Positions 9,753-55,002 of a DNA stretch of 56,549 nt are shown piece after piece. How positions within the stretch are numbered: position 1 is the stretch's first letter; each line of letters opens with the position of its first letter. The notes beneath the pieces are model-generated. The model was not told the origin of the DNA. It ran no database searches and worked only from the letters and a program-made list of their open reading frames with translations. This stretch comes from a virus (taxonomy: Duplodnaviria > Caudoviricetes). Made by a program: the position numbers and the translations under genes. Location: positions 1 through 56,549 of the IMG/VR virus record IMGVR_UViG_3300036846_000279, one strand, 5' to 3'.

Positions 9753-9768
9753 TCGGGTAGGGTGAAAC

Positions 9769-24364: not shown

Positions 24365-24421
24365 GTTAGAGGGCGCGCCCAACGATCTCTCTCCCGTATG
24401 GTGCGGCGCCCTCTAACCCTT

Positions 24422-24423
<2 letters not shown>
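24365..24423. terminator. Stem-loop between the convergent genome arms, probable terminator
   Basis: gttagagggcgc...gcgccctctaac, flanked by short T runs on both strands. Confidence 0.65.
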
Positions 24424-24955
<532 letters not shown>

Positions 24956-39726: not shown

Positions 39727-41293
39727 CAACCTGGGACCCGAAGATTTGCATGAACCAGCCATGCTTGGTATTGACTGCATCAAGCACTCTGTAGTCTACA
39801 GTATTCCTGGCTCTGATGTAGATAAGCTGTGCAGGCTGAGTCTGTCCTGGTCTAAACACTCGACCTATAGCCTGCTTATTCTTAGCAGGCGACCAATGCT
39901 GATCGAGGAAGATAGCTCTGTGGGCGCTTGTGAGGTTGATTGATTCACTACCTACATCAAGCGTACACATGAATACCTGATGCTTCTTGGCAGGGAATGT
40001 CTCCTTCCACATCTCAAACCGCTGCTGTTCATTCATCTCAGCTCGCAGATGGAGATAAGGAATCTTAGCCTTAGTCAGTCTACCTTTCAGCAACTCCAGT
40101 GGATCTTTGAAGTTACTGAACACAACGATCTGATCCTTACGTTCCTCATCCCATTCCAGTGACTCGATAACCTCCATCGCAGCATCAAGCTTAGAAGACG
40201 GATCTTCGAGTTTAACCTGAATCACACGCCTACCCATTTTCCAATCGAATTCATCCCGAATTACCTTCGGAGTAGCGACTGAAATCTGACGCAAACGATT
40301 GAGCATTGATAGAACGTTAGGTGACTGCAACGGCTCACCTTGCTGATCGAGAGTCTGAAGGTACTTCAGAATCTCATCATACATCTTACGCTGAGTAGCG
40401 TTAAGATCAACAGGCACAACCGTTTCGATAGGCTCAGGAATGTTGGGGAAGCATTCAAGCATAGTACGCCTAACGCCTACCCTCTTAACTAGATCCCTGA
40501 ATTCAGCCTCACGCTGAGGTTTGATACCTACGATCTTACGATAGCCACCATCGTAATCCTCTTCACAGTAAGCCTCACGGAACTTCCAATAAGACGAGTA
40601 AGTCTTAGGATACAAGAAGTTCAGCAGCGACCAGATTTCCGCAGGGTTATTGACAAACCCGGTTCCAGTCATAATATGCTTATACTGCGCTTTGAGTTTC
40701 TTGATGTTCTTCGTCCACTGTGTATCCTGGTTCTTCATACGGTGAGCCTCATCGACAACCACCATATCCCAATGCATACGAAACAGAACGTTACACTTTG
40801 GGATCACCATTTCAAACGTACCATCATCGTTAATGATGGGCATTCCATGCTCGTCCTTAGCTTGACGAGGAATACATGCTTTGTTGGTGAAGCAGTTATA
40901 GTGAGCCACAACCACCACAGGATGCATGTTCAGTGGATCAGGCAACTTCACATCAACCGGAACAGGCTTACCACCGACAACCAACTGAAACTTCGTTGTG
41001 CTGGTAGTAAAAACTGTCCAGTCAGGCAATACCTCCGGCAAAGATTCGTAGTACGTTCCCTTACCAGATTTGGTTGTGATAACCAAGATGCGCGGATTAG
41101 GGACGTGACGAGTTTTATGACTCCAAAGCCACTCAGCAGTTGAAGTCTTCATCGCGCCCATCTCACTGAAGTTAGCAGAACTATCCTGCTCAATCAGCCT
41201 AGTCAAATCTTCACGCTGGAAATCGTGCATGAAGAACTTACCACCTGGCTTCTTCCTCAGTAGAGGCTGCCGCACCAGCATTTCTTCACTCAT
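39713..41293 (-). CDS. SNF2-like (SF2) helicase
   Basis: VVDEAH, MTGT, VVFSNF, ESINLT and QAIGRVFRPGQ motifs. Confidence 0.9.
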   Translation of the reverse strand: MSEEMLVRQPLLRKKPGGKFFMHDFQREDLTRLIEQDSSANFSEMGAMKTSTAEWLWSHKTRHVPNPRILVITTKSGKGTYYESLPEVLPDWTVFTTSTTKFQLVVGGKPVPVDVKLPDPLNMHPVVVVAHYNCFTNKACIPRQAKDEHGMPIINDDGTFEMVIPKCNVLFRMHWDMVVVDEAHRMKNQDTQWTKNIKKLKAQYKHIMTGTGFVNNPAEIWSLLNFLYPKTYSSYWKFREAYCEEDYDGGYRKIVGIKPQREAEFRDLVKRVGVRRTMLECFPNIPEPIETVVPVDLNATQRKMYDEILKYLQTLDQQGEPLQSPNVLSMLNRLRQISVATPKVIRDEFDWKMGRRVIQVKLEDPSSKLDAAMEVIESLEWDEERKDQIVVFSNFKDPLELLKGRLTKAKIPYLHLRAEMNEQQRFEMWKETFPAKKHQVFMCTLDVGSESINLTSAHRAIFLDQHWSPAKNKQAIGRVFRPGQTQPAQLIYIRARNTVDYRVLDAVNTKHGWFMQIFGSQVDEED

Positions 41294-41313: not shown

Positions 41314-41754
41314 TTAGCTAACAAAGTAGTTTTCCCAATGATTGCCACCATCTTGCTGACCATCAGGGAAGACTATCACGTAAGGCTTCTTACGCTTTCT
41401 AGCAAGTCTAACGACCTGCCATGTACCTGAGCCACGATGTAGCTCAGACTTGTTGAACGGAGCAATCACCACAACATTGCTAACTCTCACAATGTTCTGA
41501 TTCCTAATTGAATAGGGCTGCGGAGGTTCAACTTCCGTAGCATTGCAGTAGGCTCTCTGCTTAGGATTCTCAGGAGGATGCAGACGAATATTGTAACCAA
41601 GATCCATAGCAATACGATGGACCTCTTCGTCTGACCCTTCACAATCACCATGATTGAGCCAAGTACCTAATTTAGCAGAGCTAAGCAGCCGTGAGATTAC
41701 GGCTGTTTGAGCAGGTGTCATACCCCTGCGAGTTCCGCTGAATCCTACTTCCAA
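41314..41754 (-). CDS. SLOG/DprA-like Rossmann-fold protein
   Basis: VGFSGTR, HGDCEGSD, RNQNIV and SGTWQVVRLA motifs. Confidence 0.7.
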   Translation of the reverse strand: MEVGFSGTRRGMTPAQTAVISRLLSSAKLGTWLNHGDCEGSDEEVHRIAMDLGYNIRLHPPENPKQRAYCNATEVEPPQPYSIRNQNIVRVSNVVVIAPFNKSELHRGSGTWQVVRLARKRKKPYVIVFPDGQQDGGNHWENYFVS

Positions 41755-41785
41755 AGTTGTCTCCCGTTCGAGCTATATTGCTTAC

Positions 41786-42190
41786 TTATGATAACTCACT
41801 GAGAATATGAGCTAAAGCGTCTGTCTTGCTCATACCCTTTTCACGATACAAATAGACGTATCGCCGTGAGTATCTTCTACAGCTTTTGTATTTTCTACAG
41901 AAGATGGCGTTGCGTTTACCTCGCTTTATTCGATTGCCACACACAATACAAATAGGGCGCGCTGGCCCAAGTGAGATAGCATCAATTGCTTGCCAAACTG
42001 ACAAGCCACGCGAGATGTAATATTCAAGATGATCTGCGTTAAGCCTTAGATACCCTTCTACTGTGTCTCTTAGCTTGGGTACGCATTCTTCACAGAATCC
42101 TGAATCAGTTTCACCTTCGTAGAATTTCCCGCAATTAGGACAGACATAGCTTTCTGTTTGCCCTAAACTTTGAGTAACGGAGGAGCGCAT
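41786..42190 (-). CDS. Zinc-finger hypothetical protein
   Basis: CPNC..CEEC and CIVC..FC...C. Confidence 0.65.
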   Translation of the reverse strand: MRSSVTQSLGQTESYVCPNCGKFYEGETDSGFCEECVPKLRDTVEGYLRLNADHLEYYISRGLSVWQAIDAISLGPARPICIVCGNRIKRGKRNAIFCRKYKSCRRYSRRYVYLYREKGMSKTDALAHILSELS

Positions 42191-42210
42191 TTCCCCAGAA
42201 TGCGAACTAG

Positions 42211-42480
42211 TTAAATGCGCTTCACTCCGTTACTACGACTGTCACCCGAAACGGGAGAAACGGATGACACCGCATGACACAGGGTAGCATAATTGCTAGC
42301 CTTTGTCAAGTCATTCGCTTCACCAGTTACACCATCAGTCGCGGGTCCCCAAGTTACACCATCATTCGTGAGAACCACACGATAGCCACGATTGAGGATA
42401 TCTTCAATCTCATCATATCCCCAAATCGCAATCTCATGGTCAAGAAACTTGCGCTCAGTTGTGTAATCAACTGCGGTCAT
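42211..42480 (-). CDS. Hypothetical protein
   Basis: RBS AAGGAG. Confidence 0.65.
   Translation of the reverse strand: MTAVDYTTERKFLDHEIAIWGYDEIEDILNRGYRVVLTNDGVTWGPATDGVTGEANDLTKASNYATLCHAVSSVSPVSGDSRSNGVKRI
42281..42309 (-). promoter_or_regulatory. Sigma70/SigA-type promoter inside a CDS
   Basis: TTGACA-17-TACCCT with extended TG. Confidence 0.7.
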
Positions 42481-42502
42481 AATAAGCTCCTTGTTTACTG
42501 TG

Positions 42503-42585
42503 GGTGAGCTTGTTGAGTCTCAATCTACCCTCCCCAGAGAACTAGACTGAGACTCAACAAGCTCACCTAGTTAGACTAGGTGAGC
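42503..42585. repeat. Intergenic long stem plus overlapping short hairpin
   Basis: ggtgagcttgttgagtctca...tgagactcaacaagctcacc overlapping gctcacctag-ttaga-ctaggtgagc. Confidence 0.85.
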
Positions 42586-42604
42586 CTGCTTAGTTGGCTT
42601 AACC

Positions 42605-42928
42605 TTAGACTGCAACCTCGTCGGCAACCTCAGCCGTCTCAGTCTCATCGACAAGGCCAGAAGCCTGAAGGTTGATGAGGTAAACCTGATCCTCATTAGC
42701 GATAACCTTCACGTACTCGCTACCCTCCTTAGCCTCCTTGTTTTCCTTCGCGTTCTCGAAACCCTGCTTAAGAGTCGTAGCCTTTTTGTCCTTCAGTTCC
42801 GGCCACGTCTCGTTTACCAGAACACCCTGCTCGCCTGATGCGAGAAAAGCATTCAGCTTCTCGATATACATACCCTTCGTGCGAGTCTTGCTAAGAAGGG
42901 CTGCAATCTGATCGGCGGTAAGTGCCAT
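42605..42928 (-). CDS. Hypothetical protein, paralog of 50700-51035
   Basis: Shared KL..F..S.E.G....E.WP...K.A.TL.QGF..A pattern. Confidence 0.75.
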   Translation of the reverse strand: MALTADQIAALLSKTRTKGMYIEKLNAFLASGEQGVLVNETWPELKDKKATTLKQGFENAKENKEAKEGSEYVKVIANEDQVYLINLQASGLVDETETAEVADEVAV

Positions 42929-43035
42929 ATGTTTTAACTCCCTTTCGTTGTTTTGCCATTCGGCAATTGATTTACGTGCAATCGCTGTAACTCTCTCCGT
43001 TCCAGCGAAACCTTTTTAACTCCCGTTACCTGACC

Positions 43036-43527
43036 TTACTTGGTAACCTCGCTGTCACGCTCTAGCTGTGACAACCGATTTTCGTGATTCCTTAGTGCCT
43101 GACTGATATTTATACCTCCTTGTGATTCGCGCCACGCTTCCAACCGTCTCACGCGGGTTTCAAGCTCTACTAGAAGTGTAGCAGGGTTCGCGCCGTGAGT
43201 CAAGCCCTCGAATGTAAAATCTTCCGGGGGACGATACAGCCGCACTTCCGACCCTACCCCCCGAGCGCCTCTCTTTACTATCTGAATTGACCCACTTTGG
43301 ATAAGCATTCGTCGAATCCTAGAATAATAGGCTGACGAGATTCCCAATTGATTGAAGAGTTCCGTGACCTTTCCGACAAACACATGAACGTCGTCTTCCT
43401 GGTAACTCCGCTCTAGCATAGCGTCATACAACCTTCGTGCATGAGTAGCGATTGCTAGCTCTTTCTCTTCAGCGGGCTGTTCAGGCTGAGCGGGCTGAGC
43501 GGACTGACTGGTTTCTACTTCACTCAT
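43036..43527 (-). CDS. Winged-helix plus coiled-coil hypothetical protein
   Basis: LFNQLGISSAYYSRIRRML...GSIQIV. Confidence 0.6.
   Translation of the reverse strand: MSEVETSQSAQPAQPEQPAEEKELAIATHARRLYDAMLERSYQEDDVHVFVGKVTELFNQLGISSAYYSRIRRMLIQSGSIQIVKRGARGVGSEVRLYRPPEDFTFEGLTHGANPATLLVELETRVRRLEAWRESQGGINISQALRNHENRLSQLERDSEVTK
43175..43203 (-). promoter_or_regulatory. Sigma70/SigA-type promoter inside a CDS
   Basis: TTGACT-17-TACACT with extended TG. Confidence 0.7.
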
Positions 43528-43834
43528 CTGTATCACTTCCTACCTGCAATTGGTTGGGGTTTATAGCCATCCAACCTTCGAGAAAACAGATCCGACACAT
43601 AAACTGTCCACTAACCATAGCCACGACAGTCTTGTGTTTATCTCTCAGATCTGGACAATCGGGATTCTCACATATTGCTAGCTCACCAGTCTCTTCATCG
43701 AGAATCTTGTGAGCTAGCAAGAACCATGTTTTGTAATCCCTAACCGATGTATCTGGACCAGTCTTGCGTTTTCCACCACGCTTCTTCTGTGGTAGAGCTA
43801 GCAAGGCTTTAATCTGATCTGCCGATAGGCTCAC
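43520..43834 (-). CDS. Zn-binding hypothetical protein
   Basis: CENPDC...CRIC; N-terminal LSADQIKALL. Confidence 0.7.
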   Translation of the reverse strand: MSLSADQIKALLALPQKKRGGKRKTGPDTSVRDYKTWFLLAHKILDEETGELAICENPDCPDLRDKHKTVVAMVSGQFMCRICFLEGWMAINPNQLQVGSDTDE

Positions 43835-43851
43835 TACTGAGCCGCCTTTCT

Positions 43852-44160
43852 TTAGCTACCGAAACTGGGGATCGGTGGCTGAGCAGTCTGTACAGGCTCA
43901 GTAGGCTTAGGCGTCACAGCACTTACGGCATTCTGATCTTCCGTAAGACTGACTCCACCCTCAACACGCTCAGGCACAACCTTGTAGCTGTTTGCGATAG
44001 ACTCCTGAATGACTGCAATACCAGCCTCAAGAGCCTTACCGAGAACTTCCATGTTAGGAAGCTCACGACCATTAACACTCAAGCCGATTTCACACTCGAC
44101 TTTAGTGTAACGATCCCGAGTTTGCAAATCGAAGTTCTGACGAATACCTGTCTTAGGCAT
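43852..44160 (-). CDS. Hypothetical protein
   Basis: RBS GAAAGGT. Confidence 0.7.
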   Translation of the reverse strand: MPKTGIRQNFDLQTRDRYTKVECEIGLSVNGRELPNMEVLGKALEAGIAVIQESIANSYKVVPERVEGGVSLTEDQNAVSAVTPKPTEPVQTAQPPIPSFGS

Positions 44161-44191
44161 ATCTACCTTTCATTTCTCCCGTTTATGGGAC

Positions 44192-44401
44192 TTACGGACT
44201 TACCAGAACAGGCTGCTCAGGCACAGTCTCTTCAATCGCAATCATGATTGAATCACTAGCCTTAGCAACCGTTGCTTCTTTCGTACCGCGAGTCACTGTA
44301 ATCTGCCGTGACATATTCGCGGAGACTTGATCTACAGCGTTACGAATGTCACGCCAAAAGATCTCGTCTTCAGTATTTACTACGTTACCTTTACTAGCCA
44401 C
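44192..44401 (-). CDS. Hypothetical protein
   Basis: ORF track; coupled to neighbours. Confidence 0.6.
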   Translation of the reverse strand: MASKGNVVNTEDEIFWRDIRNAVDQVSANMSRQITVTRGTKEATVAKASDSIMIAIEETVPEQPVLVSP

Positions 44402-44696
44402 GATCCAACCAATGCCTATTCATGGCTTTAAGCTCAAACCAACCGCAAGGAACAGTACCTTCGATAGGACTGACCCAAGCAAAACCAGGCCGCTTATCGT
44501 AGTTAATCTTGTATTCCCTACCGTTGTCAAGCCTAACCTTCGGAAGCTTATGCTTGAAGGTTGCAATCAGAACAGTCTTGTTCAGCGGATTCAGCCAATC
44601 GTAATACTTATCCTTCTCATTGGCTTTCTCCACTGACGGACTTCTTGGTTGCACAGGTTGGTTCGCAAGAATACGATTGCCTTTAACTTGTGGCAT
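44394..44696 (-). CDS. Hypothetical protein
   Basis: ORF track; coupled to neighbours. Confidence 0.65.
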   Translation of the reverse strand: MPQVKGNRILANQPVQPRSPSVEKANEKDKYYDWLNPLNKTVLIATFKHKLPKVRLDNGREYKINYDKRPGFAWVSPIEGTVPCGWFELKAMNRHWLDRG

Positions 44697-45010
44697 TATC
44701 CATCCTCGCCTTGTAGTTCTCTGCTTAGAGCAGACATTCTACCTTCAGCCAATCGAGTCATACTTGTACTCAACTCAATCAGCCTTACCAGAACTGTCTG
44801 ACATTCCCTGACATTCCTTAGTACCGTATCTGCTGCTCTAAATGTCCTATCATCGGGCATCGAAAGCAATATACTGACAGGTACTACTTGTTCAGTTATC
44901 TTGTCATTCAATTCTAGAACTTCACCAACGAGAGCCTGATTATCCAGCATGAACTGCTTGAGATATTCAGCCTCAAAAGCGATTTGTTCCGCTCTTTTCT
45001 GAGTAGGCAT
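44696..45010 (-). CDS. Hypothetical helical protein
   Basis: ORF track; coupled to neighbours. Confidence 0.65.
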   Translation of the reverse strand: MPTQKRAEQIAFEAEYLKQFMLDNQALVGEVLELNDKITEQVVPVSILLSMPDDRTFRAADTVLRNVRECQTVLVRLIELSTSMTRLAEGRMSALSRELQGEDG

Positions 45011-45023
45011 TAACTCTGCCTAC

Positions 45024-45209
45024 TTAATCCTCGATCTTGCAGTACCAACCCTCGGGCAGCATATCGTTGATAACGTTCTCGACCTTACCAAGGTCAAGTT
45101 CGTTAACCTCAACTTCAATACCACGCTCAGCCAAATCAATATTTGGCTCACCCGAAACATCAGGACCCATGATCCTGAGCCGGTAACTAACAATACGAGT
45201 TGTACCCAT
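45024..45209 (-). CDS. Hypothetical protein
   Basis: RBS AGGAGGT. Confidence 0.7.
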   Translation of the reverse strand: MGTTRIVSYRLRIMGPDVSGEPNIDLAERGIEVEVNELDLGKVENVINDMLPEGWYCKIED

Positions 45210-45311
45210 GTTACCTCCTAACCAAGGTAGTACCTAAATGCGATTACCGCCTCAACTGTGAGGATAAGTACCGCTGCATAGACTACTACCCATTTGGTCA
45301 TTGTGGTCTTG

Positions 45312-45390
45312 CTAACTTCAGCTAATGCTAAAGTTAGTGGAACGGCTAGCGCCGCACAGAGAGCCGCTCCACTAACCCTAGTGGGTTAGC
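45312..45390. repeat. Overlapping-hairpin element ending in CTAACCC-TAGT-GGGTTAG
   Basis: gttagtgga...tccactaac stem; includes the TAA stop of the 45386-45571 gene. Confidence 0.8.
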
Positions 45391-45571
45391 CGGGAATCCA
45401 ATCATCCCAATCTTTATGACTTCCATTCCCGTTTGTTGAAGTTTTGTCCTTGATTTTTTGCGGTGTCCTGTGGGGTTTTTTACGAGTGGGCGTGATTTTT
45501 ACGTGATCGATTCTATACAAGATAGAACCTAACACAACTATCACTATCACTATCGTTCCAAACACACCCAC
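45386..45571 (-). CDS. Small membrane-anchored protein
   Basis: N-terminal hydrophobic helix. Confidence 0.6.
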   Translation of the reverse strand: MGVFGTIVIVIVVLGSILYRIDHVKITPTRKKPHRTPQKIKDKTSTNGNGSHKDWDDWIPG

Positions 45572-46085
45572 TATGCAATGTCCTTGAGGAACTCAAAGCC
45601 AATTACAACCATAGCTTCTGTTGCCCGTTTCTTCATGTTACTACTAGGCACCATACTACCCGGCAAATCATCTTTGGTGAAGATAGTTCCAAAGACAAAA
45701 TCAGGATGCTCTTTTACCTTGTCAAACAGGCTGTAAATTGATTCAGGTTCACTCATCGACTTTAACCTCGATTGTTGCAATCTGACAGTTCTCAGTTGCA
45801 GCGATACCTTCTGCCCATTCTCTACAATCATGGAGCGCGTCTTCCTTGTTAGGATAAGGCAATCCAGAATCGTAGAGAATCACAGTGAACGTGTAGTTTT
45901 CCACTACAGACCTACCTGTTCGCAAACATCGTTCATGTAACCTCGAAGCTTACGAATGTCGTCTTTTACTGCTTGTTCATCTTCCTCAGTCTTTACAGTC
46001 CAACTGTGGAGTCTTGTCTGAAGCACCACTGTTCGATGTTGCAGAGCAAACAGCGAAGCTTGTAGTCTATCAATATCCATTTCCA

Positions 46086-46640
46086 CTAGCTTGATTCTCC
46101 CGTCCATGTTACTCTACCACGACACTTTGCACAGCGATAACTAATCCCGCTTTGTGCTCTGCGGTGTCTTGTGGAACCCATCTCATGTTTCGTTCCACAG
46201 CTACAAGTGTAGCGAAACTTCTTGGTCTTCTTAGCTGGTACTACATCGTACTGATGACAACGATCTGCTGGCAAATTCAGCCTATGCATGATGTTTGCCC
46301 ATTCCCAACCATGACTCTTTGCCTTAGGATACAAGTCATGGACTACACAATGTGCAATCTCATGCGGCAGAACTTGATTGACCATATCATCGTAGTACCT
46401 TGGATCGTTAAGCATCGTGCTATTCAATCTGATAAGCCTTGTGCCATAAGCATAACCGGCAGTAGCACCTTTCAGATCATAGACAATCTTAGCACGTTCA
46501 AGCTTAACACCCAGTGATACCTCAAGAGCTGAATAGACAAGCTCAGCCTTACTTTCAATCTCCGCAACTTTGCGGCTGTCTACGGTGCCAAGCAGATTTA
46601 TAATCTGCTCAGTTTGTAATCCCACCAGTGAGCCAGTCAC
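46086..46640 (-). CDS. SprT-like zinc metalloprotease
   Basis: TAGYA, HEIAH, HGWEW and C-terminal YTCSC...YRCAKC. Confidence 0.9.
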   Translation of the reverse strand: MTGSLVGLQTEQIINLLGTVDSRKVAEIESKAELVYSALEVSLGVKLERAKIVYDLKGATAGYAYGTRLIRLNSTMLNDPRYYDDMVNQVLPHEIAHCVVHDLYPKAKSHGWEWANIMHRLNLPADRCHQYDVVPAKKTKKFRYTCSCGTKHEMGSTRHRRAQSGISYRCAKCRGRVTWTGESS

Positions 46641-47308
46641 GCTAGGCCGAGCTTGTTGAGTAGGTCCAATTCATCACTACTCGCCTGACCATACAAGCGA
46701 GCAGCACAAATTGGCCCAATACCTTGAAGCCTTGAATCCTTATCTGTGAGAATTCTGTTACAGACACCGCAACGTCCAAGCCTCATACCATATTCATTCA
46801 TAGCTGTGACTGGATCTTTAGCGATTTCTGCCAGAACTGCCTTACGATGGTCAGGACTCTTCACTGGATAGAAGAAATCACTTGCCTGAACTGCCAGGAA
46901 AGTGTAACCTTCCCAACGATCCTTGCCTTTGTTAACCCGAAAGAACTTTTCCTTACCATCTGTCGGATCAACGATAAAGAAGTAACCAGGCTCAACATCA
47001 CAATCTACCTCAGCCATAGGAACTCCCGTTGGGTGTGGGGTAGTTGGCTGAACCGGCTGGTTTGGTTGAATAGCATCGGGATCACTAATCAGTGGCCGAG
47101 GCTGCTCAACAGCAGGCTTAGCTTTCTTAGGACAAGCAAGCAACGTCTTAATGACTGCACTTGCTTGCTCCATACTAAGCCGCTTGATATCACCAGTCAA
47201 CAGAAACTCTCTTTGAGCTTCATTCAGACTGGACATATCCTGGCTAGCAATCAGATCCCCAACAAACTTAAGTTGCGGAGCCGAAATACTACCGGGCGTA
47301 GTATCCAT
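46637..47308 (-). CDS. DUF6011-like domain protein
   Basis: C-terminal CGVCNRILTDKDSRLQGIGPICA. Confidence 0.75.
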   Translation of the reverse strand: MDTTPGSISAPQLKFVGDLIASQDMSSLNEAQREFLLTGDIKRLSMEQASAVIKTLLACPKKAKPAVEQPRPLISDPDAIQPNQPVQPTTPHPTGVPMAEVDCDVEPGYFFIVDPTDGKEKFFRVNKGKDRWEGYTFLAVQASDFFYPVKSPDHRKAVLAEIAKDPVTAMNEYGMRLGRCGVCNRILTDKDSRLQGIGPICAARLYGQASSDELDLLNKLGLA

Positions 47309-47430
47309 AGTACCTCCCGTTATTTACCTGTGTTAGTTACAACACAGGATTGAGCCTAGCAACGAGCGATAGTCGGTATCCCCTCAGACACAACCCTCAA
47401 ACTTGCTGCTAGACTCAATTCTGTGTTGCT

Positions 47431-47595
47431 TTATGCTGCTGTTGCTGCTTTACGGTCATAACATTGATGCCGTCCCTTTTCATCAATGACATAATGCCTT
47501 CGCAAACGTCCATCACGAAGGACAGCAATCGGTCTTTCGCAAGTTACACAACGCTTAAAGCGTTCATTACCAAACTTCAAGATAACTTCTGTCAT
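47431..47595 (-). CDS. 54-aa Zn-ribbon-like protein
   Basis: RBS GAAAGGAGG; CVTC...H...C; not in the ORF track. Confidence 0.65.
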   Translation of the reverse strand: MTEVILKFGNERFKRCVTCERPIAVLRDGRLRRHYVIDEKGRHQCYDRKAATAA

Positions 47596-47765
47596 GCTGT
47601 CCTCCTTTCGTTTTCAAGTTAGGTTAGTGAAGTAACAAGAGACAGGGTTCTTACGCTTACCGCCGCCCTGTATTCCTGCTGGCACAGGCAGACGCTTTAT
47701 TCTCTATCCTGCCAGAGATAAGAGTCTTTGTCGCCTCTTTATTAACTCCTGTTACTTCACTAACC

Positions 47766-47903
47766 TTACTTGTTGACCTGAGTTTTCCAAGCGTTGCGTT
47801 CTGACCTTTTCAAGTGCCGTCTTTCTTGTCTGCGACCCTTGCCAGAGTCACCATAGACACGACAGCAGCCATAAGAACATCTGACTGCTTTGTTACCTAG
47901 CAT
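47766..47903 (-). CDS. 45-aa basic protein (MLGNKAVRCSYGCCR...)
   Basis: AACGGGAG upstream; downstream of the promoter at 47951-47979. Confidence 0.6.
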   Translation of the reverse strand: MLGNKAVRCSYGCCRVYGDSGKGRRQERRHLKRSERNAWKTQVNK

Positions 47904-47950
47904 TTTCAATTCTCAACTCCCGTTCTGGACGCACTTTCCCCGTCTCGACC

Positions 47951-47979
47951 AGTGTAGCACCATATCAGGTTCTTGTCAA
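47951..47979 (-). promoter_or_regulatory. Sigma70/SigA-type promoter
   Basis: TTGACA-17-TACACT with extended TG. Confidence 0.85.
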
Positions 47980-48107
47980 GCAGGATTTACGATTTCCTTA
48001 CATCTTGGTTCCTGCGGATTCAGCGGTATGCTAATATCCATTCCTATACCGTGGCCCTATTTAACAAGACCTCCCACAGGTGTGATGCTTTGGTGATGTA
48101 AGTTAGA

Positions 48108-48175
48108 GTTGGTGAGATAGTAGGATGACTAGGGTAAGGGGGTCCTACTATCTCACTAACCCTAACCGGGTTAGC
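48108..48175. repeat. Overlapping-hairpin element
   Basis: gttggtgagatagtagga...tcctactatctcactaac plus CTAACCC-TAACC-GGGTTAG. Confidence 0.8.
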
Positions 48176-48269
48176 CGAGCTTTGTGCCGATTAGATATAG
48201 AGCACAAGCCCAAATACCAAACGCAACAGCAGTTCCGACGATAGCAAGGATCTGTGTGCTAGTCAGCAT
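48171..48269 (-). CDS. 32-aa membrane peptide
   Basis: MLTSTQILAIVGTAVAFGIWACALYLIGTKLG; stop lies inside the hairpin. Confidence 0.5.
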   Translation of the reverse strand: MLTSTQILAIVGTAVAFGIWACALYLIGTKLG

Positions 48270-48271
48270 GA

Positions 48272-48571
48272 CTAATAAACAGTGCTTGCAGACTCAGGAG
48301 ATTCCTGAGCAGCTACCAGATTGAGCAGATAAGTCTCCTTGGGGAAACGCATCTTACTCATCTGAAGCTTCACCGGATCGTACTGGTAATTCTTACGTGC
48401 CCAACTTGAGTTAGGCTTGGCATACCTACATGCCGCGATATAGACACACGGCGTGAAGAGTAGCCAACCAAGAATTACCATAGTTGTCTTGCCTTTCTGA
48501 ACACCTACAACAGACGCCCAAATGAGCGTACCGAGATAGGCGAGCAGAAAGACTGCAACCGCTGCTCCCAT
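48272..48571 (-). CDS. Membrane protein (two TM helices)
   Basis: Hydrophobic N-terminal half; AACGGGAG upstream. Confidence 0.7.
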   Translation of the reverse strand: MGAAVAVFLLAYLGTLIWASVVGVQKGKTTMVILGWLLFTPCVYIAACRYAKPNSSWARKNYQYDPVKLQMSKMRFPKETYLLNLVAAQESPESASTVY

Positions 48572-48782
48572 AGATTGTCAACTCCCGTTTTGTGAGAACT
48601 TAACTTGAGCGGAACAATTCTTGTAATTGCTCCATAAGGCCAGTGGCTTATCCCTGGCTAATAGTGGACCAAGCGACAGTAGCGTTCCCTAGGCTACTAC
48701 TCTCATGCCCTTGAGTTAGCTTGGTTTTTGCCACTGACCTTATGCAGCAATTGATTTGTATTGTTAACTCTCCCTCTATGAC

Positions 48783-48921
48783 GATGGCTTGTTTGGCTTG
48801 CAAGATGTTGCCCGCAGGTCATCTTCCAAATCTGCATCCACACATTGACATTCATTCGCTTTGGCCGCTTGAGGCTCTATTTCAGCCTGGCTGTTTGATT
48901 AGACACGATTGTGTCGCCATC
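48783..48921 (-). ncRNA. Candidate multibranch structured RNA
   Basis: Closing gatggc/gccatc stem with several internal hairpins; no credible ORF; strand inferred from neighbours. Confidence 0.4.
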
Positions 48922-49086
48922 AGCGTTTTTTATCACGGGTCTTCCGCCTAGTCAGCGTTAGCTGTGTTGTGGAGGTACAAACGAGTTATTAGTTCGGGGG
49001 TTAGATCGTTCACTCAATTCGTGAGGATTGGAGAACGCTGCATAGACCTATTGGCCTAGCGTTGAAAATAACCCCCGAACCTTGTC

Positions 49087-49208
49087 ACCTTTTCATTGTT
49101 GAACTGTGAAAAGGTTAGTGCAGGGTAGCTTACTCGCGCTAGGACGCTATTAACTTACCAGGTTACCTAGTTGAGACAACTACCCTGCACTAACCCTTTC
49201 GGGTTAGC
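49087..49208. repeat. Overlapping-hairpin element
   Basis: ggttagtgcagggtag...ctaccctgcactaacc plus CTAACCC-TTTC-GGGTTAG. Confidence 0.85.
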
Positions 49209-49253
49209 TTACTAGTTAGGCGCTGCGTTTAAAGCGCGTACAACTAGTCTTTG

Positions 49254-49400
49254 TTACTGATCGAGCCTTCCTTTGTCTTCACCATCACGAGCACCGGAAA
49301 CTTTGCACTTGCAAGTAGACCACTTGGAGTTCCAGCACTTAACGGAATGACCGTTCCGCAATTCCTTGCGGCGCCTGGCAATCCTTGCTTCAGTTGCCAT
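49254..49400 (-). CDS. 48-aa basic Cys/His protein (MATEARIARRRKEL...)
   Basis: RBS GAAAGGAG; not in the ORF track. Confidence 0.6.
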   Translation of the reverse strand: MATEARIARRRKELRNGHSVKCWNSKWSTCKCKVSGARDGEDKGRLDQ

Positions 49401-49419
49401 TCGTAACTCCTTTCTTAAG

Positions 49420-49730
49420 TTATTGAGCTAAGTTGCGAATGTGCGTTTCCCTAGCAAGTCTAGGTCAGGCCGCACCCCCTGGTATCCCCGTTTGGTTAGG
49501 GGACAACCGCTCCTAATAACATGGTGTCTTAGCCATTGAGACATAGCGCCATAAGCGTTACCTCGTTAGCCGTTCCAGATCCATTCGTCTGGCCTCAGTT
49601 AGTAGGTAGTTGTCAGTTTTGTTTGCCCGCTCAGAGTCATACTGAGTCAAGTCACAGACTTGCATCGCTCACAGTTTAGATGTGATTACGAATCTGCCGC
49701 TATCATACCGCATAGCTACCGGGCATTGTG
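49420..49730 (-). ncRNA. Candidate multibranch structured RNA (about 310 nt)
   Basis: tgcccg/cgggca stem closing four hairpins, plus at least four further hairpins; no ORF of 60 aa or more. Confidence 0.5.
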
Positions 49731-49828
49731 TTAACTCTTGGAAGAGTTAGTGAGCAGTCAGAGCTACTTTCCCCGGCGATCAACCCGGCGAGATTCAGTT
49801 GACTGCTCACTAACCCTTCCGGGTTAGC
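49731..49828. repeat. Overlapping-hairpin element
   Basis: taactctt-gg-aagagtta / gttagtgagcagtca...tgactgctcactaac / CTAACCC-TTCC-GGGTTAG. Confidence 0.85.
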
Positions 49829-49852
49829 CTTACTCAGTCTACAGATTTGTTG

Positions 49853-50347
49853 TCAGACCGAGACGTTCAGGAATGCGATTTTATCGCACTGGTACTCGTA
49901 CACTTCCTTGGTTGTCTCAGGGACGATTTCCACCCCTGTCACAACTTTCTTACAGACTACCTGACGAGTTGAGTAAAACTCGACTCGACCGATAGAAGTC
50001 TCACTGAGGATGACTTTGAATTCATCATCAGTGTACTTCTTTTCCACCTTGTAGCCTTCCCTACGTGCCCACTGAACGACTCTGGCAAACTCTTTGATAG
50101 TTGCCTCTTCATCCAGAGGATAGCTACCGTCTTCGTCCGCTGTGTTGTGATACTTAGCAACGTTGACGTAAGCATTGCCCGTAGACCGAGAAGCCCCATA
50201 AGGAATCTCGATACCTTCAGCGAGAACTTCACGCCAAAAGTTCTGATTCTTGATGAGCTTCTCAAGACCTTCCCGACAATCCCTGTCATACTTGACCAAT
50301 TCCATGTCAGGTGAGTTGGCGGGGTGGACTGAGCTGCTTTCACTCAT
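49853..50347 (-). CDS. Hypothetical early protein
   Basis: RBS GAAAGGA; own promoter candidate TGGCAA-17-TACACT upstream. Confidence 0.75.
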   Translation of the reverse strand: MSESSSVHPANSPDMELVKYDRDCREGLEKLIKNQNFWREVLAEGIEIPYGASRSTGNAYVNVAKYHNTADEDGSYPLDEEATIKEFARVVQWARREGYKVEKKYTDDEFKVILSETSIGRVEFYSTRQVVCKKVVTGVEIVPETTKEVYEYQCDKIAFLNVSV

Positions 50348-50436
50348 AGATTTTCCTTTCTGTTTCCCGTTTACTTGCTAAGCAAAGTGTAGCACATGGC
50401 TAAGCACTTTGCCAGGCAAGCCTGGTTAAGTTCTTG

Positions 50437-50583
50437 TTAATCTTCCCAGTAGTCTGGGTGATCGTCGTCGCCTGAGGCGATACGATCATAGACGGCTTGC
50501 TTGATCGACTCATCCGATCCATACAGCAAACCTTCGCAGTCACCAAGTTCGTGACCGCAGCATGGGAAATCCTCGCATGCCAT
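50437..50583 (-). CDS. 48-aa acidic Cys-rich protein (MACEDFPCCGH...)
   Basis: AAAGGA upstream; not in the ORF track. Confidence 0.6.
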   Translation of the reverse strand: MACEDFPCCGHELGDCEGLLYGSDESIKQAVYDRIASGDDDHPDYWED

Positions 50584-50608
50584 ATTGTTGACCATCCTTT
50601 TCTATTTC

Positions 50609-50677
50609 ACTCTTTAACTTGCAAGAGTTAGTAAGTAACTAACTTAGTTAGTTACTTACTAACCCTTGCGGGTTAGC
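50609..50677. repeat. Overlapping-hairpin element
   Basis: gttagtaagtaactaact/agttagttacttactaac plus CTAACCC-TTGC-GGGTTAG. Confidence 0.85.
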
Positions 50678-50699
50678 AGGATGGGCTTAGCTTGGTTAG

Positions 50700-51035
50700 C
50701 TAAACCTCCTCGGTGACCTCGGCTTCGTCGGTTGCACCGTTGACAGCCAGACCAGCGCGCTCCTTGTGCAGAATGAACACACTACCATCATTCTGAAGAA
50801 TGCGAATCTGATCGGCAACCTCAGCCTTCTTTGCAGCGGTAAGGAAACCCTGGTAAAGAGTTGAGGCATTCTTCTTGCCAAACTCCAGCGGCCAAGCCTC
50901 AGCAGGATTGATTCCTGCCTCATCAGAATTGATGAAGTCCAGAAGCTTAGGACCATAGGTGTTGCGCTGGCGCGACTCACCCATGAGCTTCTCAATCAAC
51001 TCAGGAGGAAGACCAACAAAGTTGGACTCAGACAT
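50700..51035 (-). CDS. Hypothetical protein, paralog of 42605-42928
   Basis: Perfect RBS AAGGAGGTGA. Confidence 0.8.
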   Translation of the reverse strand: MSESNFVGLPPELIEKLMGESRQRNTYGPKLLDFINSDEAGINPAEAWPLEFGKKNASTLYQGFLTAAKKAEVADQIRILQNDGSVFILHKERAGLAVNGATDEAEVTEEV

Positions 51036-51398
51036 TTATTTCACCTCCTTCGGTGAATTTAGGTTGTTTGTTGCTTGGTCTTGCTTGGTAAAGCCAATGT
51101 AGCACAGCGGCTTTTCCATGGAATCACCCGAAAGGGGGATTTCATGCAAAAGCGGCTTATCGCTGAAAACTCCCGAAAATCCCTGAAAATCGTTTACAAA
51201 GAAAGTTCCTGGTTTTGTAGTAGTATCTTAGGTGTAGTAGGTATTAAGTAGTTAAGGAATATTCCTTAATTCCTTAAAGGATTAGTGGGGGCTGCAAGGG
51301 TAAAGCCTACTATTGTAAGCTTTCTTGACAACAGACCCGAACAGACGTTCTACCTACTTGCCTGGTTCCTGGGTTTTCCGTGCTTTCTTACTGACCCC

Positions 51399-51427
51399 AC
51401 CTTAGCAGACTCAGGGGCTTTTGTCAA
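51399..51427 (-). promoter_or_regulatory. Sigma70/SigA-type promoter
   Basis: TTGACA-17-TAAGGT with extended TG. Confidence 0.75.
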
Positions 51428-51435
51428 GTCTTGGG

Positions 51436-51669
51436 CTAAATAAGCCCAAGACTTGCCAGAAGTCTCTGATCCCCCTTCTTTTTGTTGGTAGCCTTGGTTT
51501 TCTGGACTTGGTAGCAATCCTCGCATTGTCTGCGGGACTGACCAAGACTGTTGAACCGCGCGACGAGAAATTCCGTCTCGCAATCCTTGGTTGAACAAAC
51601 AAGGATACCCACCTTGTTGTTCTTCATCTTCTGCGCCTTGACTTCAGGCCGCATTGATGTTTTGGCCAT
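51436..51669 (-). CDS. Small basic Zn-ribbon protein
   Basis: CSTKDC...CEDC; RBS GGAGGAAGGA. Confidence 0.7.
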   Translation of the reverse strand: MAKTSMRPEVKAQKMKNNKVGILVCSTKDCETEFLVARFNSLGQSRRQCEDCYQVQKTKATNKKKGDQRLLASLGLI

Positions 51670-51703
51670 CTCTGTTTTCCTTCCTCCGTTCTTTGTCTTG
51701 CTT

Positions 51704-51760
51704 GGTGATACCTACAAGGTAGCACTTGTCTACCTTCTAGGTATCACCCGTTAGGGTGAT
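51704..51760 (-). promoter_or_regulatory. Hairpin-embedded extended -10 promoter cassette
   Basis: ATCACCC-N4-GGGTGAT overlapping a long stem that holds TGcTACCTT. Confidence 0.6.
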
Positions 51761-51761
51761 C

Positions 51762-51899
51762 TTAGTACCACTGGTGGGTTTCGATATCCTCCAGCGTCGT
51801 ACCCATATCTTCCAGCATGAAGAGCAACTCTTCCTCATTGTCTGCAAGACCTTCGTTGAGCAACTCGGCGATGAGTTGATCTTTGCGGGACTTGGTCAT
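51762..51899 (-). CDS. 45-aa acidic protein
   Basis: RBS GAAAGGA; start MTKSRKDQ. Confidence 0.65.
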   Translation of the reverse strand: MTKSRKDQLIAELLNEGLADNEEELLFMLEDMGTTLEDIETHQWY

Positions 51900-51934
51900 C
51901 TGAGTTTTCCTTTCTGTGTTCTCTTGCTTGACTT

Positions 51935-51991
51935 GGTGATACTCACAGTCTAGCACTTGGTTAGACTCTGAGTATCACCCTTTCGGGTGAT
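51935..51991 (-). promoter_or_regulatory. Hairpin-embedded extended -10 promoter cassette
   Basis: ATCACCC-GAAA-GGGTGAT overlapping a long stem that holds TGcTAGACT. Confidence 0.6.
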
Positions 51992-52000
51992 CTTACTTGC

Positions 52001-52102
52001 TTACTTCGCGCGCGGAAGTTCGTTGACGTGTGAAGCGTAGTTCGTCTTGCGAGGTGAACGCGGCTTCACAGTCGCGACAGCGCGATGGGAAACTTGAAAC
52101 AT
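52001..52102 (-). CDS. 33-aa basic peptide
   Basis: RBS GAAAGGA; lies between two cassettes. Confidence 0.5.
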   Translation of the reverse strand: MFQVSHRAVATVKPRSPRKTNYASHVNELPRAK

Positions 52103-52217
52103 GGATTGTCCTTTCTGGCTTGTTTCGTGCTTGACTTGCTACGCACACTGTAGCAGGCTTGCTACAGTCTGCGAGGCTAGTTGTATTAAGCTAGTGTTTA
52201 GTTGGTGCTGGTGGGGA

Positions 52218-52619
52218 TTATTCCCCACCAGCAGGATTGCGCGCTGCCCATTCCTGAGCGAATTGCTTGCGCGCGGTAACGTGGCGCTTGACTGATTCCT
52301 CGCGCTTGACGGCTTTTTCAGTCCTGCCGAATCCGTGCGCAGACTCAACCGAGGTTACGCCGTTTTTGGTGACTTTGACAGTATGTCCAGCCGCGCCGCG
52401 ATGGGCGATGCCGAATGTCCTACCGCGCATACCGCGCGTCCAGCAATCATCGCTGGCGCGATATGTGCGGTTTTTCTCGCTAGGCTCACCAGTAAGCCCG
52501 CGTGAGTGATGGTAGTCAGTCTCCACAAGGGATTCCTGCTCCGCCACCAGACGCGCGTAACGGCGTCTACGGTCGTTATCGGTGATTGCCTGCATACGCT
52601 CCGCGTATGACATGCGCAA
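52218..52619 (-). CDS. Arg-rich hypothetical protein
   Basis: RBS AGGAGG. Confidence 0.65.
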   Translation of the reverse strand: MRMSYAERMQAITDNDRRRRYARLVAEQESLVETDYHHSRGLTGEPSEKNRTYRASDDCWTRGMRGRTFGIAHRGAAGHTVKVTKNGVTSVESAHGFGRTEKAVKREESVKRHVTARKQFAQEWAARNPAGGE

Positions 52620-52937
52620 ACCCTCCTAGGTTGTCGGTGCCTGACGTGCTGGACGCAAGGTAGCTCAGGCTGCACAGCCGTCGTATCACCCTTTTGGGGG
52701 ATTTCATAGTGAGGCTACTAACGTGGACAGCCTACTAAGCAGACTCAGGCGAGCATCGCCGTGGAGGCATCTGTAAGCCACGCTCACGCCCTCGCAGCCT
52801 GAGTGAAGGGAATCACCCTAGCGAGGCATCGATCGCCTGAGCGTGGCCTATACGCAGCCTGGAGCGATTGTAAAGGGACTGTAAAGCTGAAAGCGTGCTT
52901 GATCGGGAACTGTCTTCGGAATTGTACCGAGCACTAT

Positions 52938-53321
52938 CTATGTTTGACTTAGATATTTCAGTGCCCTTTCCAATCCTTCAACGTTGTCTCCCAGCAACGC
53001 AATCCCATGATTACATCTCCTACATAGAAGTCCTCTGACCTTGCCAGTCTCATGGCAATGATCCACATGCAGGAGTACTCTATCTAATTCTCTAGCAGCA
53101 ATGCCTTCCCCACCACAAATAGCACAGAGCCCATTCTGCTTATTGTAAAGCTCATCATAATCCTCAATGGTTATTCCATAGAGCTTTTTTAGATTAGTAG
53201 CTCTATGGCTTAAGTAGTCCCTCTGTCTTCTTACTCCTTTTTTCCTGCCTCTTCTTTTATCCCTCTGTTCATATGCAAGCAAATCTGCTATCTGAGCCGG
53301 CGTTAAAGCTGCCATTCCCAT
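52938..53321 (-). CDS. Endonuclease VII-like protein
   Basis: YGIT..Y...QNGLCAIC...VDHCHETGKVRGLLCRRCN. Confidence 0.92.
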   Translation of the reverse strand: MGMAALTPAQIADLLAYEQRDKRRGRKKGVRRQRDYLSHRATNLKKLYGITIEDYDELYNKQNGLCAICGGEGIAARELDRVLLHVDHCHETGKVRGLLCRRCNHGIALLGDNVEGLERALKYLSQT

Positions 53322-53347
53322 AAGAGCCTCCCGTTCGCTAGATAACC

Positions 53348-53376
53348 AGCATAACACAAACTCCTGGCAAAGTCAA
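53348..53376 (-). promoter_or_regulatory. Sigma70/SigA-type promoter for the endonuclease VII gene
   Basis: TTGACT-17-TATGCT with extended TG. Confidence 0.8.
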
Positions 53377-53467
53377 GTCTTGGGGAGCGATCCAACAGAG
53401 TAGCAATGCTAGAATACCGGCGACCACACTTCCACAGGTCTATTCACATTTCAAAGGAGACACAGTA

Positions 53468-54256
53468 ATGTCAGCAACAGAGGAAGACCCTACAAATGAG
53501 GAACAAGCACAAACGGAAGAAGATGAGGACGGAACAGAAGACGAAGACGAGTCAGAAGACGAGGACGAATCAGATAGCGGATCGGGCTCAACAGGAACAA
53601 GAAAAGAGACTAGCACTATCAAGAGCCCGAGCACAGAAGAGGAATCAACTCTAACACAAGTAGCTGACCCCACCAAGCCTAAACTACCACCACCGCCTAG
53701 CTCACCTTTGGCTGCGATTATTAAGGAGGCACAAACCCATCATGGCAACAGGGAAAGCACCAGCCCCAAGTCAATCAACCACAGCGACACATCAAGCAGC
53801 GATGACGAAGCCTCCGAACACGAAGACAGTATCGAAAGGCGGAAGTTCGACAGGCCCAACAGGCCAGAAGTGCTAGCAAGTAAAAGTGAACCAACCGAAC
53901 CGACCTACGAAGAACTTATTAAGGACCCCGAGCTGACTGAGGAAAGTTTGCAGACTACGCTCAATGCTTATGCCAATGCGATTAAGCAGGAGTATGAGCT
54001 GTCTGTCAGGGAAGCGCCTGATAATGTCGAGGAATACACACGCGACTTTTTCAAGCGGAATGTTCACAGCGCCGCAGCTCAGATCGTCTGGCTAGCTAAC
54101 AACGCTGAGTCTGAATCCGTAAGGCTTAAGGCTGCTGTCACAGTTGTGCATGAAGCTCTTACCGACGCCCGAGCAGATGGCGACCCCATCAAGAACCTGC
54201 TCCAAGAGCTTACCAACAACGATAAAAAACCACAGCCCCAGCCACAGAACAACTAA
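53468..54256 (+). CDS. Protein with acidic disordered N-terminus; C-terminus possibly terminase small subunit
   Basis: RBS AAAGGAG; first gene of the + arm; helical AESESVRLKAA motif; function inferred from position. Confidence 0.5.
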   Translation: MSATEEDPTNEEQAQTEEDEDGTEDEDESEDEDESDSGSGSTGTRKETSTIKSPSTEEESTLTQVADPTKPKLPPPPSSPLAAIIKEAQTHHGNRESTSPKSINHSDTSSSDDEASEHEDSIERRKFDRPNRPEVLASKSEPTEPTYEELIKDPELTEESLQTTLNAYANAIKQEYELSVREAPDNVEEYTRDFFKRNVHSAAAQIVWLANNAESESVRLKAAVTVVHEALTDARADGDPIKNLLQELTNNDKKPQPQPQNN

Positions 54257-54899: not shown

Positions 54900-55002
54900 A
54901 AACCCCCGGTAATTATATTGGGCTTGTAGGTGCTTGGGCCGCCCGCCCTACAAGCCCAACATAATTATAAACTAACCAACTAATACACTCCCTCAGCCCC
55001 AG

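Follow-up and report, generated by a model that had tools for sequence, protein, structure and literature searches.

Arm-sharing intergenic hairpins as candidate transcript-boundary modules in the early gene arm of an uncultured soil phage

The window analysed here is IMG/VR record IMGVR_UViG_3300036846_000279, the whole genome of a tailed phage (56,549 bases, completeness estimate 95%), and our subject is a family of intergenic hairpin elements that punctuates its early genes. By comparison with PHROGs, the + strand encodes the terminase, portal, major head and tail-fibre proteins, and the − strand the DNA polymerase, primase, exonuclease and helicase; the gene arm on the − strand spans about 53.4 kb down to 24.4 kb. 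A megablast search of cultured phages with the early region gave no match, and the helicase is less than 31% identical to that of any named record, the nearest cultured phages included. The phage sequence is present only in two soil metagenome DNA runs.

Eight spacers of the early region hold the elements, all of them where an earlier note on this DNA had placed them. On the coding (−) strand each consists of a short hairpin, H1, followed by a long hairpin, H2, that reuses the 3′ arm of H1. H1 is made of an arm a, a loop L and an arm a′ (7–10 pairs); the 5′ arm of H2 starts within a′, and its 3′ arm ends in a near copy of a, here a″. In the five copies with the CTAACCC palindrome, H2 additionally pairs the H1 loop with a downstream partner, L′. 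The long stems have 14 to 25 Watson–Crick pairs each and have 5 to 11 nucleotides (nt) in common with the short palindrome, much as the note had described them. Full H2 reaches at least 20 pairs in six of the eight elements and 17–18 in the other two; once H1 has formed, some 9 to 17 pairs of the H2 stem are left. Half of the H1 loops belong to the GNRA class on the − strand (GAAA, GGAA, GCAA, GAAA), the same four that had been reported; the others read ACUA, GGUUA, UAAC and UCUAA. The third hairpins (H3) that the note had seen on several elements were also found, at 50609–50628, 49732–49749 and about 45312–45337.

Reading down the − strand, the first two elements are of the ATCACCC type. That at 51935–51991 has H1 at 51974–51991 (ATCACCC GAAA GGGTGAT) and H2 at 51935–51979 (17 pairs and a G·G mismatch); an extended −10 box, TGCTAGACT (51947–51955), lies within the loop and 3′ arm of this H2. 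The element at 51704–51760 places H1 (51743–51760) 1 nt after the TAA at 51764–51762, and its H2 (51704–51748, 18 pairs and a G·G mismatch) holds the extended −10 box TGCTACCTT at 51716–51724. Five CTAACCC elements follow. At 50609–50677, H1 (50659–50676, loop GCAA) precedes an H2 of 22 pairs including the H1 loop (50621–50669), and H3 occupies 50609–50628. At 49731–49828, H1 (49810–49827, GGAA) is joined to an H2 of 20 pairs (49740–49820) and to H3 (49732–49749); about 330 nt without an open reading frame (ORF) of at least 40 codons come after it. The element at 49087–49208 has H1 at 49190–49207 (GAAA) and H2 at 49108–49200 (21 pairs). At 48100–48175 we find H1 at 48156–48174 (GGUUA) with H2 at 48102–48166, and at 45312–45390 H1 at 45372–45389 (ACUA) with H2 at 45328–45381 and the third hairpin at its end. 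The eighth element, 42501–42585, stands behind a gene for a 107-residue protein; its H1 (42561–42585) is built from GCTCACCTAG and CTAGGTGAGC, and its H2 (42501–42569) has 25 pairs.

All copies lie in spacers. The note had most elements begin at or just after an upstream stop codon: the position behind stop codons stands, but the gap from stop to H1 ranges from 0 to 46 nt. In two copies the stop codon falls within the 5′ arm of H1, and there the TAA lies inside GCTAAC, as had been noticed, at 45386 (ORF 45386–45571) and at 48171 (a 32-codon ORF, 48270–48172).

How far do these structures exceed chance? CTAACCC-N4/5-GGGTTAG occurs five times in the window and TCACCC-N4-GGGTGA twice, against 0.00 expected for either in shuffles (100 for the former), and the palindrome GCTCACCTAG-TCTAA-CTAGGTGAGC occurs once; the tally of five, two and one given earlier is upheld. 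Helices of at least 12 pairs number 32 in the window and 1 to 8 in 10 mononucleotide shuffles. The stretch from 42.5 to 52.9 kb holds 20 of the 32, as well as 16 of the 25 longest inverted repeats. In the early arm an arm-sharing short hairpin stands on the 5′ (sense-upstream) side of 9 of 22 long helices, compared with 49 of 554 in unrelated viral loci, and on the 3′ side of 6 of 22, compared with 42 of 554; with G·U allowed in the short hairpin the test no longer discriminates (161 of the 554 controls). An RNALfold-style scan with a 160-nt window gave stable local folds throughout and so was uninformative.

If the two hairpins share an arm, is their pairing maintained? Covariation was read from four window copies of the CTAACCC type together with one copy of the relative G003; this set of five was used because MAFFT alignments of all 11 copies, and then of 6, misplaced the 3′ arms. 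In the H2 foot of the five, 7 of 15 pairs show compensatory changes, and all four pairs between the H1 loop and L′ are among these 7. Of the 74 cells in this foot alignment 97.3% pair, and 500 shuffles never attained such values. One pair of the foot is G·U in all but one of the five copies and would read as an A·C mismatch on the opposite strand. The two ATCACCC copies, which are alignable paralogues, have compensatory changes in 5 of 18 pairs and lose only the apical pair in one copy (21 of 500 shuffles do as well). With a strand-symmetric search rule, G·T outnumbers A·C in the long helices by 10:2 in the early arm of the window; for 28 relatives the ratio in the same arm is 29:12 (p = 0.0115). 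A contig from the second soil run (depth 3.4) lacks both position 51944 and its pairing partner, 51970.

The compensatory pairs, the G·T excess and the GNRA loops on the sense strand argue that the elements function on the sense RNA, in line with the RNA reading offered in the earlier note, and not on DNA; the pairing looks to be under selection on the RNA of the coding strand. Moreover, the partner with which the H1 loop covaries is a competitor of H1, so the competition between the folds is itself selected. The two folds, previously described as mutually exclusive, are in real competition: H1 loop and 3′ arm alike covary with the downstream partner. We conclude that the feature common to all copies is a middle segment with two partners.

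Could the short palindromes nonetheless be sites on DNA, operators or ‘stoperator’-like roadblocks for a dimeric DNA-binding protein, or else cruciform signals? Perfect 18-bp palindromes do recur in the early region beside stop codons and promoters, and the first early gene encodes an endonuclease VII. But the half-sites are not evenly spaced, being 4 or 5 nt apart in the window and 6 or 7 nt apart in relatives, covariation links the spacer to distant sequence, the conserved G·U would be an A·C mismatch on the other strand of a cruciform, and strand polarity is strict. We regard such sites as the least credible of the explanations weighed here.

A helicase profile identified 43 related viral loci, and the helicases of the nearest relatives are 63–70% identical to that of the window. 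Among metagenome contigs the helicase search gave 16 loci, none above 67% identity, with no near-identical strain for the mapping of breakpoints; a scan with a 223-residue protein found no relative, and a 164-residue protein nothing in metagenome contigs. A covariance model built on the five CTAACCC-type copies served for the search of relatives that the earlier note had proposed. Its seeds score 60–77 bits. The non-seed copies, 49105–49211 in the window and 2869–2941 in G003, score 40–41 bits, and every other relative scores at most 20. The controls, 80 unrelated loci with the same 18-nt palindrome, score at most 28 bits; they come from a 14-base palindrome scan that yielded at least 119 stretches, each of the 80 listed being one chance site. 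With six copies in this phage and two in G003, the sequence family is therefore confined to these two.

Five copies have the same H1 stem, and almost the same one (CTARCCC..GGGYTAG) recurs in two relatives despite a helicase identity of only 47–66%. A conserved H1 sequence with drifting H2 interiors would be accounted for if H1 and the H2 foot were binding sites of a phage or host RNA-binding factor, whether a boxB/N-type antiterminator or a specific endoribonuclease, and the GNRA loops and a 16-nt GGGTTAGTGAGATAGT stretch common to the window and G003 would suit such a factor. The loop, however, has no fixed sequence and measures anything from 4 to 7 nt, two or three H1 sequence classes coexist within one genome, and no RNA-binding or antiterminator family was recognised among the proteins scanned, 30 with Pfam and 20 with PHROGs (ten in both), which make up part of the ORFs. 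We think a binding factor very improbable.

The architecture has a wider distribution at one boundary. Behind the orthologue of the 107-residue gene (window 42928–42605) an arm-sharing pair is present in 6 of 13 phages under a strict Watson–Crick rule, a count that includes L137, where both hairpins are long, and in 9 of 13 by eye with G·U allowed. These pairs are unrelated in sequence and contain several sense-strand G·U pairs. The relatives’ loops include GCAA, UUCG and UGCG, and their H2 often ends at the Shine–Dalgarno sequence of the next gene, 0 to 12 nt before it. Each phage of the clade seems to have hairpin feet specific to its genome. One relative, at 9155–9960 of its locus L166, has a different family of its own, in which every intergenic hairpin is bounded by TGAAT...ATTGAGCTACGTAG.

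The closeness of H2 to the Shine–Dalgarno sequence in relatives raises the question of translation: the choice of fold might set access to the downstream ribosome-binding site, or couple termination at the stop codon to re-initiation. The stop codons within the H1 5′ arm of two window copies would fit, and the ESAS repeats of Cluster K mycobacteriophages, for which a role in translation has been suspected, occupy the same position according to passages of their description (PMC3203893). Against this, the Shine–Dalgarno sequence is unpaired in every fold, 130 to 510 nt without a gene follow three of the window copies, and the stop-to-H1 distance varies over the whole range given above. Translational control is, in our judgement, improbable to a slightly greater degree than a binding factor.

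The early region is also rich in genes without relatives. Between 53.3 and 44.7 kb, 19 of the 23 genes upstream of 44696 lack a homologue in 15 relatives, although some of these ‘ORFans’ may be coverage gaps because the loci of the relatives include no more than 10 kb ahead of the helicase. Elements stand at four junctions of a conserved gene with an ORFan. The unit 51662–51764 is repeated at 51892–51995 (64-nt and 39-nt blocks, 77–78% identity), and one contig of the second soil run (X2, depth 3.7) skips 51672–51931, exactly one element and one small gene. Might the elements then act as DNA, as portable homology for the shuffling of ORFan genes? Just this definition is given for the promoter(early) stem-loops (PeSLs) in passages of PMC2839356, which speak of about 100 bp conserved between copies together with recombination; here the shared stretches are the 64- and 39-nt blocks of the ATCACCC units, and stretches of 18–32 nt in the CTAACCC copies. 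The CTAACCC copies have only 18–24 nt common to them and unrelated H2 interiors, and thus offer little homology for recombination, while the compensatory changes, G·U bias and GNRA loops indicate selection on RNA. The indel itself is one low-depth contig placed at 80% likeness, and further joints between X1 and X2 (45903 to 46741 and 48418 to 50848) have short sides or unidentified inserts. Of the cassette shuffling that the earlier note had considered there is left one weak hint, the skipped element-plus-gene unit in an ORFan-rich region; that recombination is what the elements are for strikes us as highly unlikely.

What of the promoters? Those of the host type are clear: TTGAC-N14–16-TGCTA has six sites in the window, five of them on the − strand, far above the 0.53 expected. 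The extended −10 motif TGCTA(C/G)NNT stands ahead of many early genes, and in two of the eight elements (51935 and 51704) it lies inside H2, at 51955 and 51724, in the loop and 3′ arm, so that an RNA started there is without the H2 5′ arm. No convincing promoter was found in the six other listed elements. Some elements, then, are fused to the next promoter.

The hairpin family exceeds the eight, with extras of the same style at 47615–47772, 47340–47428, 51411–51469, 51076–51140, 52134–52181, 52206–52233, 52774–52850 and 24365–24417. The first (− strand) has 25 pairs, a 104-nt loop and the same GGTTAGTGAAG / CTTCACTAACC foot without an H1; the stop codon of ORF 47903–47766 falls in its 5′ arm. 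Four others (51076–51140, 51403–51469, 52134–52181 and 47340–47428) overlap −10 or −35 boxes. The 3′ arm of the long − strand hairpin 47340–47428 contains a −10-like TGCTAGGCT, and on the 3′ side follows a short hairpin (47327–47348) that shares an arm with the long one, the whole spanning 47327–47428. At the stop of ORF 51669–51436, the 3′ arm of the − strand hairpin at 51403–51469 contains the −35 box of a promoter-like TTGACA-N15-TGCTAAGGT. A degenerate ATCACCC-type palindrome (51120–51140, − strand) is followed, within 51076–51140, by a 9-bp hairpin with the −10 box TGCTACATT in its loop, ahead of a gene for a 111-residue protein. At 24365–24417, the meeting point of the two gene arms, stands a hairpin with the family's GTTAG..CTAAC(CC) foot; its tail is weakly T-rich on either strand, and it is likely an end-of-arm terminator.

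Are the elements terminators of the ordinary kind? Canonical terminator-like sites number ten in 41500–54000, as many as in shuffles, and none falls on an element; they are not above chance in either gene arm. No element has a U-tract, as the note had observed, and the element tails are not U-rich. Nor did Rfam name the elements: at the gathering threshold the whole window has 0 matches, and at an E-value limit of 1 the region 41500–53700 gives only generic long-hairpin (microRNA precursor) models, far below gathering. The geometry does correspond to that of I- and V-shaped terminators, with H1 0 to 46 nt behind the stop and H2 next, with overlap. In passages of the WebGeSTer paper, I-shaped denotes at most three U in the trail and V-shaped a second hairpin that starts at the end of the first (PMC3013805).

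The host bears on this question. A lysin-like protein encoded at 24422–24931 (−) carries an Rpf-type transglycosylase domain (Pfam), for which phages of Mycobacterium, Rhodococcus and Streptomyces account for 120 of the 123 named records matched. Despite the 47% G+C of the genome, this domain hints at an actinobacterial host. A search of genome contigs gave one 1.5-kb contig of a Saccharimonadales metagenome-assembled genome, too little for naming a host.

It is somewhat unlikely, in our estimate, that the elements are plain non-canonical intrinsic terminators or attenuators, whether I- or V-shaped or clusters of U-tract-less hairpins, in which arm sharing is incidental to tandem hairpins with a repeated foot. 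Hairpins so near to stop codons and without U-tracts would be expected, the hairpin at the convergence of the arms has the same foot motif, and the lysin domain hints at actinobacteria. Passages of two papers are in keeping with this: WebGeSTer cites experimental support in mycobacteria, Streptomyces and actinophages (PMC3013805), and hairpin clusters have been proposed as terminators (PMC8355165). But the H1 loop covaries with its downstream partner, so the alternative fold is selected, and a tandem terminator needs none. Three elements (50609, 45312 and 42503) precede a gene without a recognisable promoter of its own. In addition, termination by hairpins that lack a U-tract is disputed.

We tentatively favour, at somewhat less than even confidence, a reading in which the elements are RNA-level transcript-boundary modules of the ORFan-rich early arm, in a phage that uses the host RNA polymerase. 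A fast-folding H1 (7–10 bp, often with a GNRA loop) would form just behind the cistron. Once transcribed, the 3′ arm of H2 would capture the 3′ arm of H1, and in the CTAACCC copies the H1 loop also, to yield a duplex of about 20 bp or more. For the window copies, full H2 is calculated to be favoured over H1 plus the short H2 by 2.7 to 13 kcal/mol (about 0 for 42503); there H1 would form first in transcription and then be displaced, because full H2 is the more stable. The module may insulate adjacent cistrons and attenuate read-through without a U-tract. It may also define and protect messenger RNA ends, most probably through RNase III-type cutting of full H2, after which H1, and H3 where present, could re-form as terminal hairpins. 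At 51935 and 51704 the promoter of the next gene would lie within H2, and its RNA would lack the 5′ arm. What the sequences show are the structures, with their selection, strand and positions, and promoter-like motifs far more frequent than chance allows; attenuation, cleavage, refolding and end protection are steps that we infer.

Why RNase III-type cutting? An RNase III substrate requires about two helical turns of double-stranded RNA, and H2 is of that length. In the early region of T7 the RNase III sites are long intercistronic stems with internal loops, and the sib site of lambda, a single site, becomes an RNase III substrate only on RNA that extends past a shorter hairpin. We favour cutting of this type because of the length threshold and the analogy with T7 early processing and lambda sib.

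Several observations weigh against the boundary-module reading. Among the runs that contain the phage there is no RNA run. The host is only a hint, and so the RNases at hand are uncertain. Across the relatives overall, arm sharing (22 of 207) is barely higher than the background (49 of 554). Since 50609, 45312 and 42503 are followed by genes without a promoter, these elements are not full terminators, and the distance from stop codon to H1 is highly variable throughout. Strand-biased mutation could partly contribute to the G·T excess, and both microvariants, the loss of 51944 with 51970 and the skip of 51672–51931, are single contigs at depths below 5. Finally, in the relatives’ orthologous copies it is H1 plus the short H2 that is favoured, by 1.6 to 14 kcal/mol; with the energy balance opposite in the window and in its relatives, there is no common set-point for a switch.

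A bolder proposal, and in our view an unlikely one, is that the elements serve as switches programmed to refold, a retroregulation device that recurs wherever one early gene gives way to the next. A transcript that ended early or was trimmed would keep H1 and the short H2 and stay stable, whereas read-through RNA would fold into the full duplex of at least 20 bp and be cut by an RNase III-type enzyme, its products refolding as terminal hairpins (H1 upstream, H3 downstream). The fate of a cistron’s messenger RNA would then be set by the polymerase’s next step, and the conserved G·U in the competing helix would tune the exchange.

How do the elements compare with known systems? The earlier note did not recognise them as a described family. 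For the sequence this stands, there being no Rfam match; in kind they come close to the PeSLs (PMC2839356) and to the I-/V-shaped terminators (PMC3013805), as far as passages on these go. By such passages the PeSLs of T4-type phages are likewise intergenic units of an ORFan-rich early region (PMC2839356, PMC4122927) in which a sigma-70-type promoter goes together with a stem-loop, and the stem-loop may extend over the −10 or −35 box; their copies within a genome resemble one another, and an indel of one unit is hinted at here. The present elements differ in belonging to an unrelated phage lineage without sequence similarity, and in having a recognisable promoter in only two of the eight listed. 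Where a PeSL has one hairpin, they have two or three with shared arms, and covariation backs the alternative fold; their stems are long (17–25 pairs) and not G/C tracts. With the I-/V-shaped terminators, as described in the same passages, they have in common hairpins close behind the stop, at most three U in the trail and a second hairpin where the first ends; here, however, the hairpins overlap and do not abut, the shared arm has two selected partners, and several copies precede genes without a promoter of their own.

The early stems of T7 and the sib site of lambda offer a likeness by analogy, in that long intercistronic stems occur in early transcripts and the sib logic resembles the one proposed here. 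Unlike the T7 sites, the elements are near-perfect stems; and where lambda has its single sib, one arm here holds at least eight copies. A fourth comparison is with the Start Associated Sequences (SAS) and extended SAS (ESAS) of Cluster K mycobacteriophages. Passages of PMC3203893 give ESAS 17-bp consensus arms and a 4–13 bp spacer, tied to a 13-bp SAS. These too are inverted repeats with a variable spacer; they lie directly ahead of ribosome-binding sites, within the non-structural half of the actinophage genome, and are conserved with the gene family, with no function assigned. The elements of the window have free interiors and longer stems, and a second hairpin shares an arm with the first. 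The passages on PeSLs, SAS/ESAS and non-canonical terminators that we drew on do not describe hairpins that share an arm and have covarying alternative folds, the phrase itself not having been searched. The kind of module is broadly known; the selected choice between two folds is the new aspect.

Other candidates were set aside. The attC sites of integrons, to which the earlier note had likened the elements, are single imperfect hairpins with an R″/R′ core-site consensus and go with an integron integrase. The analogy finds no support: the elements are two overlapping, arm-sharing hairpins, the H1 loop is variable in length, and no tyrosine recombinase was found among the 30 Pfam-scanned and 10 further PHROGs-only proteins (part of the ORFs). 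The covariation of the loop with a distant partner and the strand bias weaken it further. The same scans recognised no integrase, RNA polymerase, sigma factor or RNase. A promoter for a phage RNA polymerase was rejected, there being no such polymerase among the scanned proteins; the motif CTCACTA, which we take to resemble T3/T7 promoters, occurs in both arms. Strand bias and GNRA loops speak against DNA hairpin promoters of the N4 type and against single-strand initiation sites, and the layout of the repeats does not fit an origin as a miniature inverted-repeat transposable element or by target-site duplication.

Some features of the early arm deserve separate mention. This phage and G003, with helicases only 47% identical, have in common a non-coding core of about 80 nt (window 48620–48757, − strand; 1322–1465 of locus L126) at 82.7% identity, and in both phages the core sits inside an outer stem of 23–26 bp that is unrelated in sequence. 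Nothing in Rfam and no tRNA matches the core, and a model of it (R2) found only the window and G003 among the relatives examined. It looks like a conserved small RNA that may be released from the long flanking stem. In three stretches of 330 to 510 nt (49400–49731, 48752–49087 and 51100–51436) no ORF on the − strand reaches 40 codons; such stretches hold more hairpins (for example at 48992–49080) and an AT-rich repeated patch at about 51230–51290. On the + strand, the H1 at 48156–48174 reads CTAACCCTAACCGGGTTAG, which matches a brief series of vertebrate telomere repeats. The motifs agree by coincidence and not through contamination, the hairpin sitting inside a contig-spanning element.

The first gene of the early arm (52938–53321, −) encodes a protein of the endonuclease VII family (Pfam E = 3e-22), a type that cuts branched or cruciform DNA, which is curious beside an arm full of long palindromes. 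Within the replication module lie two HNH endonuclease genes (35937–36485 and 39265–39783, −), one with an AP2 domain; both are likely homing endonucleases. Elsewhere in the genome, an identical 58-nt hairpin with 21-nt arms that are 95% complementary occurs at 253–310 and 54910–54967, in each case just upstream of a collagen-like tail-fibre paralogue (327–2780 and 55003 to the end).

The early regions of lytic phages contain many small unknown genes, and beyond a few model phages little is known of their transcript boundaries. In an uncultured soil phage clade, we find covariation support for two competing folds at such gene boundaries. The elements provide a testable case for post-transcriptional insulation or retroregulation that would be independent of U-tract terminators, and they would extend beyond the T4-like phages the idea embodied in the PeSLs, that of portable promoter/hairpin units around ORFans. 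If the host is actinobacterial, they also bear on whether hairpins that lack a U-tract end transcripts there.

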